Positions 41,999 to 44,263 of a DNA stretch of 44,696 bases are shown here, one piece after another. The stretch is from Escherichia phage Pandora71. The notes under the pieces are model-generated. The model saw only the letters and a list, made by a program, of their open reading frames with translations, searched no databases and was not told the DNA's origin. Each line of letters opens with the position of its first letter. Within the stretch, counting starts at the first letter, position 1. The translations under genes were made by a program, and so were the position numbers. The stretch lies in the sequence record PV841870.1; one strand, given 5' to 3'.

Positions 41999-44263
41999 AT
42001 GAGCTTAATTAAATTCGCTGTAACCCGACCCGCTAAAAAAGGCGAAAAAGCCAGGGCGGAAAACTTCCAGATGACTACCGAAGAGTTTTTCGAATTTATC
42101 AATGATGCGAAAGAAATCTCCTCGGTGCATATCAATAAGACGGAAGATAAAGCCGAGTATGCGCGCCGCAAGCGTAAGGCCGATGGCATCGTGGCGTATA
42201 CCAGTGACGGATTGCGTCGTAAGACCAGTGCGGTGGACCGCTCGATCCTGTTCTTTGATATTGACCGCACCGACACCCGCACTTTACGCCGCTGCCGTAA
42301 GGCGTTCATCGACGCGGGACTGGAGCACGTCTTCCACACCACAACCGGCGACCGCCACCCGCTGAAAGGAGGCACGCGTTGCGCTCGTTTCCTGGTGCTC
42401 ACTGACAAGCCTGTCCCGGCGGAAGACCTGGGCCGCGTACAGTATGCACTATTACACCAACTGGGCCTGTCAGATGTGGACTTCGATGATTGTACGAAAG
42501 ACACAAACCGCCTTATGTACCTGCCCCACCAGCAATCGGTTGTTAAGTGTCACTACGGCAAACGTGCCCGCGTCCGTCGTCTGCTTCGCCTGGCTGATAA
42601 GCTGGGAGTGGAAAAAGAGGAAGTACGACGCGAACTGACCCAGGGCGATGACGGCGTGGCGGACGGCATTCTGGATTGGTGCTTCCAGGCAGGATTTGAA
42701 CCGCTGTCGTCCGGTCGTGGTTATGAAGTGCCATGCCCGAACGAACACCTGCACAGCGGCGAAGGGTCCACCGCGATCATGGTTAAGGATGGCGAGATCC
42801 GTTTCAAGTGTATGCACACCGGCAACGAGTGTTGCTCGGAACTGAACAGACACCAGCACCTGGCGCTACGTCTTATCGGGATCCCGGACCACCTGAACGT
42901 CGAACCGCACAACATGTCACGTAAGCAAATCGCCGCCATCCTTCCGGGACTGGACGACGAGGAAGTGGAATCGTGCTATGAACATATCGTTGATGCGGTT
43001 GGCGACGGCGACGAGTACGGCGGATGTACGGACGCAGACCTGGACAACGAGCCGGTTGCGCTGTTCAGTAAGCACGACCCGATCATAGAAGGCCTGATTA
43101 ACTTTAAATCAACCTGGTATCTCGCCGGTGAGTCGAACATTGGCAAGTCGTTCTACGTGCTGGGCCAGATGGCGTCAGTATCTGCCGGTATTCCGTTTGG
43201 CGGGGCGAAGGTCGTCCAGTGCCACAACTTCTATTTCGATGCGGAAGGCGGCGAAGCCTCCAACCAGCGTAAGGAAGCATTGCAGATTAAATACGAGCAC
43301 GACCTGGACAAGCTGCACATTATCGATCTGCAATCACGCGGCTGGGATATCACCAGCAAATCGGGCTTGCGTGAAGTTATCAGCTTCATCAACCGCACCG
43401 CTAACGGCGAACCGGTTGGCCTGGTGGCGTTCGACTCACTCAACCAGACTGTTGCGCTGCGGTCCGCCGATGCCAAACCGTTCGATGAGAACAACGCCAG
43501 CGATATGGGAGAAGTGGTCAAAGCGCTGAAAGCCATCGCGGAAAACACAGGTGGCAGTGCGGGCGTCATCCACCACCCGGCGAAGGGTGCGAACGGCAGC
43601 AGAACCCCACGCGGGTCCGGCGCACTGCATGGCGCTGTCGATTCTGCGTTCTTCCTGGAACAGCCTGACGACAACCAGCCCGGACAACTGAACCTGTATC
43701 ACGAGAAGGCACGTAACGGCATCAAGCAAGCGCCGCGCGGCTTCGTCCTGCTCAAGTGCAAAGTTAAGGTTGATCTCCGCAAGTCCGAGGCGTTCGAATC
43801 GCACCAGTCCACCAGCACCGGGCCTGACTTCGGCGATGTGGTTGCCGGTTGGGACGTCAAGCCAATTGCATCCACGCCACGCGACGAGACTCTTTACCTC
43901 ATACCGGTCGCCCTGGCACCGTTCGCCATCGAACAGGCGAAGGCCGCGGGCAAGGCAGCAGTTAAGGAAGAGAACGCCGCAGGTCCGCGCAACGAAAAAG
44001 AGAAAGTGCTTTATGCAGCGCTGGAAAAACTGATGGAAGATAACCCGGACCATACCGGATTCAGTAAATCGGCAATTGTCCGCCAGGCGGGATTGGCAAA
44101 AGGTGGCACGTCGACGAAGGCAATCGACGATATGGTCGAGCGCGGCGTACTCGGTTTTTATACAGATCCGCACACCGGGGCCATTTATGGGTCGTCGAAT
44201 ATCGTCATAAAAACTAGTATACCCATCACGCTTTCGGCGACCGATGACGATTTAAAAGATTAA
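41999..44263 (+). CDS. primase-helicase (AEP/prim-pol-like N-terminus, zinc-binding segment, RecA-like ATPase, C-terminal DNA-binding-like tail)
   Basis: 754 aa; FFDIDR (DxD), Cys/His cluster 42720-42850, Walker A GESNIGKS, Walker B-like LVAFDSL. Confidence 0.8.
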   Translation: MSLIKFAVTRPAKKGEKARAENFQMTTEEFFEFINDAKEISSVHINKTEDKAEYARRKRKADGIVAYTSDGLRRKTSAVDRSILFFDIDRTDTRTLRRCRKAFIDAGLEHVFHTTTGDRHPLKGGTRCARFLVLTDKPVPAEDLGRVQYALLHQLGLSDVDFDDCTKDTNRLMYLPHQQSVVKCHYGKRARVRRLLRLADKLGVEKEEVRRELTQGDDGVADGILDWCFQAGFEPLSSGRGYEVPCPNEHLHSGEGSTAIMVKDGEIRFKCMHTGNECCSELNRHQHLALRLIGIPDHLNVEPHNMSRKQIAAILPGLDDEEVESCYEHIVDAVGDGDEYGGCTDADLDNEPVALFSKHDPIIEGLINFKSTWYLAGESNIGKSFYVLGQMASVSAGIPFGGAKVVQCHNFYFDAEGGEASNQRKEALQIKYEHDLDKLHIIDLQSRGWDITSKSGLREVISFINRTANGEPVGLVAFDSLNQTVALRSADAKPFDENNASDMGEVVKALKAIAENTGGSAGVIHHPAKGANGSRTPRGSGALHGAVDSAFFLEQPDDNQPGQLNLYHEKARNGIKQAPRGFVLLKCKVKVDLRKSEAFESHQSTSTGPDFGDVVAGWDVKPIASTPRDETLYLIPVALAPFAIEQAKAAGKAAVKEENAAGPRNEKEKVLYAALEKLMEDNPDHTGFSKSAIVRQAGLAKGGTSTKAIDDMVERGVLGFYTDPHTGAIYGSSNIVIKTSIPITLSATDDDLKD

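Follow-up and report, generated by a model that had tools for sequence, protein, structure and literature searches.

The stretch of DNA analysed here (the window) is the whole 44,696-nt sequence of Escherichia phage Pandora71 (PV841870.1), and the subject is a gene on its plus strand at 41999..44263 together with the short repeats that follow it. In the list of open reading frames (ORFs), the gene starts with ATG and encodes 754 amino acids, with FFDIDR at residues 85-90 and GESNIGKS at residues 377-384, exactly as stated in an original prediction that had proposed a multidomain primase-helicase acting as an origin-binding initiator. Along its entire length, the protein matches PHROG 3228 ("replicative helicase-primase"; E = 0), and its GenBank relatives are named likewise or similarly. 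Neither the protein family, which already has an annotation, nor in itself the joining of an AEP primase to a RepA-like helicase is new, and the gene on its own is ordinary; the added value of the present analysis is the evidence for a cassette that consists of the C-terminal winged helix and the adjacent repeat array, by which a candidate origin and its specificity become directly testable. The window is a near-complete genome that is circularly permuted relative to deposited records, and the region 3' of the gene therefore leaves the window at its end and resumes at 1-100, as revealed by alignment with HK578 and Ioannina, in which this intergenic region crosses the junction. The 2.7 kb around the gene is 94.5% identical in nucleotides to Escherichia phage JLBYU60, and 154 of the 158 matching records cover at least 80% of this region, nearly all of them Dhillonvirus (HK578-like) siphophages of E. 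coli.

The domains were assigned from sequence motifs, from an alignment of 25 sequences (45-97% identity), to which the residue conservation given below refers, and from structure models of the two ends of the protein that lack a Pfam assignment, which were modelled separately. Residues 1-205 (41999..42613, plus strand) contain motif I (D87-x-D89), motif II (T115/D118/H120) and motif III (D163...R171...P176); D87, D89, T115, D118 and D163 are invariant, and H120 and R171 are kept in at least 90% of the sequences. The model of this end displays the AEP catalytic fold, and the sequence has the catalytic motifs I (DxD), II (xxH) and III (hD...R), which together identify the N-terminus as a predicted AEP primase. 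A search of PDB sequences with the N-terminal profile gave no useful match, and NCBIfam has no model for the protein. The following Cys/His segment (residues ~240-290; 42716..42868, plus strand) has the pattern C246-x5-H252...C271-x-H273...C279...H285-x-H287, and a similar pattern is visible in a distant AEP homologue (L074). As regards a possible UL52/PrimPol-type zinc finger (C-H-C-C/H after the AEP domain), all seven Cys/His residues are invariant, and the model of the segment is of low confidence, with a predicted local distance difference test (pLDDT) score of only 50-70; on the residue pattern, the segment is presumed to bind zinc.

The RepA-like RecA-fold helicase domain (residues ~355-600; 43061..43798, plus strand) contains Walker A (GESNIGKS) and Walker B (FDS), followed by HHPAK and RGSGALHGAVD. 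The sole Pfam match of the protein, AAA_25 (PF13481), covers residues 357-531 (E = 9.2e-20; 71.5 bits vs a cutoff of 27), and residues G377-S384 of Walker A, F478-D479-S480, H525-H526 and R538 are invariant, as are HHPAK and RGSGAL. The best match among PDB sequences is RSF1010 RepA (1g8y), which is weak and extends over the HHxxKG motif (E 0.53). The profile, the Walker A and B motifs and the HHxxK and RGSS motifs place the helicase, as judged from sequence, in the RepA-like/DnaB-type RecA-fold AAA_25 family. The boundary with the C-terminal domain is marked by a linker motif, KP...PRDETLxLIPVALAPF (residues ~620-645; 43856..43933, plus strand), which is invariant, and the recombination joints of relatives fall just C-terminal of its PRDETLxLIPVALAPF part. 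The model of the C-terminus displays the H1-(b1)-H2-H3-b2-b3 fold, a predicted winged helix at residues ~665-735 (43991..44203, plus strand) with H1 EKVLYAALEKL, H2 FSKSAIVRQAG, H3 TSTKAIDDMVERG and then the beta wing. The protein ends in an acidic tail (...ATDDDLKD; 44231..44260, plus strand), in which D751 is invariant and L752 is kept in at least 90% of the sequences, and which we take to be a possible partner-binding tail reminiscent of T7 gp4 and SSB. These assignments bear out the AEP/prim-pol-like N-terminus, the Cys/His zinc-binding segment, the RecA-like ATPase and the possible C-terminal winged helix of the original prediction.

Two side observations concern the C-terminal domain. 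The motif GFSxAxIVxxAG..GG of the winged helix (44090-44140, residues ~698-714) gives a summed C-terminal profile match to the TALE-like protein BurrH (E ~1e-15); homology to BurrH was rejected, as the summed score consists of ~20 individually insignificant matches, one per repeat, and probably reflects a common helix-Gly-Gly loop pattern. In phage bob (NC_073072.1; L299 2838-2992), the ortholog is slightly longer and a 155-bp repeat_region is annotated in the 3' part that codes for the C-terminal domain, which suggests an internal duplication there; as this repeat_region sits within the gene, it is unrelated to the repeats 3' of the gene and was discarded as their counterpart.

The repeats directly 3' of the gene, which the original prediction had described as iteron-like, are real, non-random and far above chance. 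The motif GCGGGACA occurs in 16 copies in the window vs 2.06 expected, a count that 0 of 100 shuffles reached. On the 3' side of the gene, it forms a heptamer/octamer array of candidate iterons (44424..44526, plus strand) that begins 160 nt after the stop codon and comprises six direct copies (at 44424, 44436, 44452, 44462, 44510 and 44519) and one inverted copy (GTCCCG, 44478-44483). The adjoining AT-rich element (44376..44423; 73-80% AT) is the most AT-rich stretch of the region and a candidate DNA-unwinding element; it holds GTGAATAGTTATGCAG, which is conserved across genera (Dhillon-, Cornell-like and other lineages), and the inverted repeat TTATGCA-N7-TGCATAA (44398-44418). Directly after the array lies an imperfect hairpin of ~50 nt without a T-run (44532..44580; -28 kcal/mol, z -5.7). 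The locus thus combines what is expected of an iteron origin, namely short repeats in both orientations beside the initiator gene and an adjoining AT-rich region.

These elements form a module of ~200 nt that is present in two copies, at 44376-44582 and 16490-16664, with a common order: the AT-rich element, four direct heptamers, one inverted heptamer, a GC-rich spacer, two direct heptamers and the ~50-nt hairpin. The second copy belongs to a locus at 16352..16664 (plus strand), between the tail-chaperone stop (16351) and the tape-measure start (~16733), which holds 8 copies of GCGGGACA at 16354-16610: two heptamer-built hairpins come first, followed by the array (four direct, one inverted and two direct heptamers at 16509-16610) and the same hairpin as at the first locus (16616-16664). 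The heptamer-built hairpins (GCGGGACAGGCGGGAC/GTCCCGTTTTGTCCCGC; 16354-16386 and 16433-16466) are 79 nt apart and each is accompanied by TTTT, and the first is annotated as a rho-independent terminator in HK578. These two terminator-like hairpins probably lower read-through into the tape-measure gene, and candidate initiator sites would then double as terminator stems ahead of that gene. Edwardsiella phage eiAU has an equivalent second locus with its own heptamer, CGCCCCG.

Among Dhillonviruses, the positions of the heptamers are fixed and the spacers drift. For the ~50-nt hairpins of 11 lineage representatives, RNAalifold found only a 5-bp sub-hairpin, with the MAFFT alignment out of register; when the sequences were folded singly, an equivalent hairpin folded in 11 of 11 despite the differing sequences (z -2.4 to -5.9). 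No RNA family of Rfam was found anywhere in the window at gathering thresholds, and a consensus promoter and terminator scan of 44264-44696 and 16352-16734 gave nothing convincing; promoter-like hexamers read by hand within the same two regions are too weak to claim.

To compare the repeats with the protein, 50 IMG/VR loci encoding relatives were fetched and 33 were tabulated. In most lineages, a heptamer is repeated in the ~700 nt 3' of the gene, and each lineage has its own: CGGGACA in Dhillonviruses (68-98% protein identity), ACTCGCA in a group at 50% identity, GGGGAGA in Cornellviruses, CGGACAA in L274 and L283, TCCGACA in L278, L285 and L288, AGGGATA in L277, GGGGATG in L289, a GTAGAAA-type heptamer in most of L290-L297 (~30% identity; clearest in L290), and CGTGCGA in L298. 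Where the sequence was inspected, the arrays contain about six direct and one or two inverted copies. In Cornellvirus-like lineages, the GTGAATAGTTATGCAG element, the hairpin and CACGGCA(A/G)CA hold their place and the heptamer of the lineage occupies the equivalent positions.

Comparison of closely related loci reveals that the heptamer changes together with the C-terminal domain. L287 and L274 are 96% identical in the primase and helicase vs 45% in the C-terminal 100 residues, and L283 and L285 are 98.7% identical in the primase and helicase vs 50% in the C-terminus; the heptamers differ in both pairs. In contrast, L278 and L288, with 79% and 81% identity in the corresponding parts, have the heptamer TCCGACA in common. 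In both high-identity pairs, DNA homology ends at codon 664-665, in an Ala/Lys-rich linker just before H1, and resumes 263 nt (L285/L283) or 577 nt (L287/L274) past the stop codon. Of the proteins encoded within ~3 kb, the winged-helix segment alone varies together with the array. The first downstream gene was rejected as the source of an array binder, since three different first downstream genes accompany the one heptamer TCCGACA (L278, L285 and L288). The small helix-turn-helix (HTH) protein encoded directly upstream was likewise rejected, since it belongs to different families across genera and near-identical Cro-like copies accompany different heptamers (CGGACAA in L283, GGGGATG in L289). 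Additionally, unlinked loci agree within a genome, as both arrays consist of CGGGACA in Pandora71 and of CGCCCCG in eiAU. Taken at the level of sequence comparison, the repeats co-evolve with the predicted DNA-binding domain of the proposed initiator, which indicates that the winged helix would recognize the GCGGGACA repeats 3' of the gene.

A scan that was blind to gene content extends the pairing to distant proteins. IMG/VR was searched for CGGGACA-N(2-8)-CGGGACA, which gave 120 loci, and for the reversed heptamer as a control, which gave another 120; such a degenerate scan returns mostly unrelated contigs and is an unbiased sample once paired with its control. A RepA-like helicase (family profile E <=1e-5) is encoded at 13 of the 120 CGGGACA loci vs 0 of the 120 control loci (Fisher p = 1.7e-4). 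At 11 of these 13 (L114, L104, L034, L089, L105, L097, L074, L027, L126, L049 and L043), CGGGAC or GTCCCG is present in 7-16 copies no more than 400 nt away from the 3' end of the gene, and in 8 of the 11 the array starts at most 60 nt past the stop codon or overlaps the last codons; the array of L074 starts ~290 nt past the stop codon, and L049 has copies inside the 3' end of the gene. In several distant arrays, direct copies are followed by a short palindrome (e.g. ACACCCTTAAGGGTGT, TGTATATATACA) and then by inverted copies. The distant proteins are 22-31% identical to the Pandora71 protein in the helicase domain, and their primases are of several types: Toprim/EGYATA-type in L114 and L104 and Prim-Pol-type in L126 by reading of the sequences, and AEP like that of Pandora71 in L074 and L027 by profile, with L097 related to L027. 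Their C-termini have a common motif, W+xxFY...KKKAFxRA. Since even these remote genes are directly followed by arrays, the combination of a RepA-like primase-helicase gene and a short-repeat array directly 3' of it is widespread.

In light of these comparisons, the favoured reading, for which we estimate a probability of roughly 0.6, is that the replicative primase-helicase would also be its own origin-recognition factor, with its specificity set by the cassette of winged helix and array. The protein is most likely a self-loading initiator analogous to SaPI Rep (of Staphylococcus aureus pathogenicity islands), P4 alpha and pRN1 ORF904, built from different domain families. In the proposed mechanism, the winged helices of a presumed ring-shaped oligomer would bind the six direct GCGGGACA copies and the inverted one, the adjoining 45-nt AT-rich element would melt, and the helicase would load itself there without a separate loader; the AEP domain would then prime, and the phage PolA-type polymerase would take over. 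The ~50-nt hairpin may offer a site for entry or priming on single-stranded DNA, comparable to the ssi sites of RSF1010, and the second module (16352-16664) may act as an additional origin or, like crr in phage P4, as an enhancer. Specificity would evolve by the swap of one cassette, the winged helix with its array. The origin-binding initiator of the original prediction hence gains comparative support in that the arrays vary with the winged helix and not with the rest of the protein or the flanking genes; DNA binding and origin activity of the protein are inferred.

Several observations weigh against this reading. The GC skew of the window tracks the coding strand, cannot locate an origin and provides no independent origin signal. 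No clear array is found in the 700 nt after the gene in L272, L273, L275 and L282, and a second locus is missing from Cornellvirus PhiSTP1. The hairpin is as stable on one strand as on the other, which makes RNA and DNA roles inseparable, and the arrays run with transcription between early and later gene blocks, an arrangement that also fits a transcriptional role. The winged-helix segment and the array are adjacent, so that their joint inheritance could partly reflect linkage, although the flanking blocks recombine independently. Finally, the C-termini of the distant proteins have no significant similarity to the Pandora71 winged helix in a hidden Markov model (HMM) search or by hhalign (probability 0.7%); one heptamer apparently accompanies different C-terminal domains, which a simple model in which the recognition helix sets the heptamer does not explain.

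The likeliest alternative, which we nevertheless regard as improbable, is that the protein acts at the fork only, like T7 gp4, that the module acts on transcription or as RNA (e.g. as a boundary, attenuator, processing or anti-termination signal between gene blocks) and that the winged helix is otherwise used, e.g. for protein contacts. Both modules run with transcription at operon junctions, one after the early rightward genes and the other between the tail-chaperone and tape-measure genes, where the heptamer-built TTTT hairpins directly after the chaperone stop include the one annotated as a terminator in HK578, and the module region forms a more stable fold than shuffled sequences do (z -2.4). 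However, the heptamer tracks the winged-helix segment rather than the neighbouring genes, a behaviour that is not required of a purely RNA element. The long hairpin lacks a U-tract and is just as stable on the minus strand, Rfam gives no match at gathering thresholds, and very distant primase-helicase genes are directly followed by the same arrangement. That the flanking blocks recombine independently and that the unlinked second locus agrees argues against this explanation and against mere linkage alike.

It is rather improbable that the winged helix binds the arrays without initiating replication there, for instance in the service of autoregulation, of the timing of downstream (middle or late) transcription or of replisome tethering, with replication starting at another site or through transcription or recombination, the mode of initiation in many phages that have a PolA-type polymerase. 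The arrays lie upstream of the next gene block, and the second one, inside the tail operon, would be at an odd site for an origin. What argues against this explanation is that a helicase tethered by its own DNA-binding domain beside an AT-rich element is the signature of a self-loading initiator, as in SaPI Rep (PMC9371898). Moreover, none of the annotated relative genomes examined names a separate gene for an initiator or loader, and six direct copies would suit a hexamer.

The original prediction had drawn its iterons from a second class of repeats, CGCATTGGTTGCC, which belong to the motif ATTGGTTGC that occurs in 14 copies in the window vs 0.46 expected, in about nine places, most of them intergenic. 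Near the gene, CGCATTGGTTGCC is present in direct orientation at 44272-44284 and 44326-44338, as TATTGGTTGCC at 44362-44373, and once inverted at 44645-44657, and the 20-mer TTTGCGCGCATTGGTTGCCA has 2 copies vs 0.02 expected. Six of the 14 ATTGGTTGC copies flank the region 3' of the gene. Three direct CGCATTGGTTGCC-type sites (44275, 44329 and 44364, within 44253..44382, plus strand) precede the array module, the first two in a 54-bp tandem duplication (region 44253-44346) that also contains the perfect palindrome ATATGGGAATTCCCATAT (44285-44302); one inverted site (44646..44654, minus strand) lies downstream of the module; and two direct sites (40-48 and 71-79, within 40..79, plus strand) belong to the same intergenic region and closely precede the first small downstream gene, whose ATG is at 101. 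The duplication is polymorphic among relatives. Pandora71 and JLBYU60 have it, Ioannina has a shortened form, and HK578 and many other Dhillonviruses, whose matches begin at query position 43-46, lack it.

The other eight exact copies, at 10754/10768, 31958/31975, 26863, 30058, 34932 and 41459, show that ATTGGTTGC extends beyond this locus; together with further copies of the shorter core TTGGTTGC (30047, 38555/38571), they occupy seven other places. Most are intergenic, whereas the copy at 34932 falls where a gene has its 3' end and that at 41459 within the early divergent promoter region, and the motif ATTGGTTGC(A/C) often comes in tandem pairs 12-31 bp apart near gene starts or ends. The copies at 71 (plus strand) and 10754 (minus strand) are both followed by ATTGGTTGCACACCAAC, a ribosome-binding site and an ATG, in front of two different genes. 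In eiAU, the core GCAACCAA is the most over-represented word; of its 23 genome copies, 9 follow the orthologous gene at a distance of at most 770 bp and five others lie between the tail-chaperone and tape-measure genes. PhiSTP1 has GCAGCCAAC three times, and the core is common with Cornellvirus as TTGGCTGC. In both eiAU and PhiSTP1, one copy of the core overlaps the last codons of the gene, in different reading frames, which implies that the motif acts at the DNA level. Where the winged helix changes among the loci of relatives, the ATTGGTTGC motif stays unchanged.

Because it is spread over the genome and common to several genera, the ATTGGTTGC class probably represents general regulatory or host-factor sites rather than iterons specific to the initiator, and the GCGGGACA heptamer arrays are the better iteron candidates; the iterons of the original prediction thus hold for the array and not for CGCATTGGTTGCC. 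That the ATTGGTTGC-type repeats are the true initiator sites and the GCGGGACA arrays accessory is very doubtful, for while 6 of 14 copies flank the array module, the eiAU core is densest after the gene, the motif in two cases overlaps the coding 3' end in different frames and a conserved part of the protein could hold a conserved specificity, the other eight copies with their tandem pairs near gene starts or ends look like a genome-wide regulatory or host-factor site and the motif does not follow the winged helix.

A separate over-represented octamer, ACGGCA(A/G)C, has 53 copies in the window vs 5.2 expected (standard deviation 2.3), or ~1 per 840 nt, in varied contexts (e.g. 538, 1554 and 2611). 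Its copies are mostly on the plus strand at 1-25000, mostly on the minus strand at 25600-39900 and on the plus strand again from 40400, and it could be a primase recognition site or another strand-skewed signal. Related cores (CGGCAAC) rank among the most frequent 9-mers in eiAU and PhiSTP1. One copy, at 44607, belongs to the conserved scaffold just after the hairpin, and its GCA(A/G)C core is common with the ATTGGTTGC class.

The gene directly upstream of the primase-helicase gene (41659..41988, plus strand), with which it is probably co-transcribed, encodes 109 amino acids with a coiled-coil N-terminus and a C-terminal HTH (Pfam HTH_23, 2.5e-7; Sigma70_r4_2, 1.9e-6). It is not orthologous across genera, being HTH_23/sigma-70 region 4-like in Dhillonvirus vs Cro/C1-type in eiAU and PhiSTP1. 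A 2026 preprint names a gp45-gp46 operon in HK578 and reports that mutants escaping OLD defence map to gp46, the counterpart of the present gene, and to the gp45-gp46 promoter, from which its authors see a link with phage replication (bioRxiv 10.64898/2026.07.10.737580). The Dhillonviruses, like their relatives in Salmonella and Edwardsiella, are virulent phages that are common and that appear in the BASEL collection papers and in several phage-characterisation studies. The literature search turned up no mapped replication origin for these phages, nor any account of an origin, iterons or a C-terminus that binds DNA in the group.

More tentatively, and with less than even confidence, heptamer arrays with an AT-rich element and a hairpin 3' of the gene might represent a widespread, undescribed class of origins for AAA_25 self-loading primase-helicases of any primase type (AEP, Prim-Pol or Toprim), in which specificity is reset by cassette swap and some members have a second copy in the tail operon like crr of P4. 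If so, the presence of CGGGACA beside C-termini without detectable relationship would point to an unrecognised shared recognition element or to a host factor. Should the favoured reading be true, the origin and its specificity determinant would be predictable from sequence alone, which would help phage engineering, the understanding of replication incompatibility between co-infecting relatives and the reading of defence-escape mutations such as those of the OLD escapers in HK578 gp46. The self-loading-helicase principle of SaPIs, P4 and pRN1 would extend to the very large AAA_25 family, and the natural swaps of winged helix and array would offer a ready system for the evolution of initiator-origin specificity.

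A comparison with known systems reveals both similarities and differences. T7 gp4 resembles the Pandora71 protein in its fused primase and RecA-fold ring helicase, in the phage PolA-type polymerase at the fork and in its acidic C-terminal tail; its primase, however, consists of a zinc-ribbon and a Toprim domain, and it has no winged helix and no origin-binding role. The IncQ plasmid RSF1010 uses three separate proteins (RepB', RepA and RepC), an oriV with 20-bp iterons, and ssi sites that are recognised by RepB', whereas a single protein and shorter repeats are found in Pandora71. P4 alpha combines primase, helicase and a C-terminal winged-helix origin-binding domain in one polypeptide, and its iterons are octamers (TGTTCACC) that occur at two cis loci, ori and crr (Yeo et al. 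2002; Ziegelin & Lanka 1995; both in the reference list of PMC4234260). P4 alpha, however, has a Toprim/EGYATA primase and a superfamily 3 (SF3) helicase, in contrast to the AEP primase and AAA_25 helicase in Pandora71, which makes the Pandora71 protein a functional analogue and not a member of that family.

The origin of the archaeal plasmid pRN1 is a stem-loop downstream of orf904, and its authors note similar arrangements in some phages, the BPP-1 group (PMC4234260). ORF904 likewise unites an AEP prim-pol, a helicase and a winged helix in one protein, with a small DNA-binding gene upstream in the same operon. It differs in its SF3 helicase and in its 100-nt stem-loop origin, in which binding motifs are not yet identified, whereas heptamer arrays are prominent in Pandora71. 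SaPI Rep recognises, through a winged helix at its C-terminus, six to twelve iterons of five or six nucleotides that lie directly downstream of rep in both orientations and flank an AT-rich region, and no loader is involved; the SaPI Rep helicases are MCM-like AAA+ proteins that translocate 3'-5' (PMC9371898). The likeness to SaPI Rep and PriRep5 is extensive: a winged helix at the C-terminus would make the helicase the initiator, short repeats of 5-6 nt (SaPI) or 7-8 nt (Pandora71) lie downstream beside an AT-rich region, a primase is fused to the helicase in PriRep5, and specificity differs among related elements. The motor of the Pandora71 protein is a RepA-like AAA_25 RecA-fold without similarity to SaPI Rep in the PDB sequence search, and Pandora71 additionally has a second array locus and the conserved hairpin. 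The system would therefore work like SaPI Rep, P4 alpha and pRN1 ORF904 by analogy, yet it is not a member of those families because its helicase and primase classes differ from theirs.

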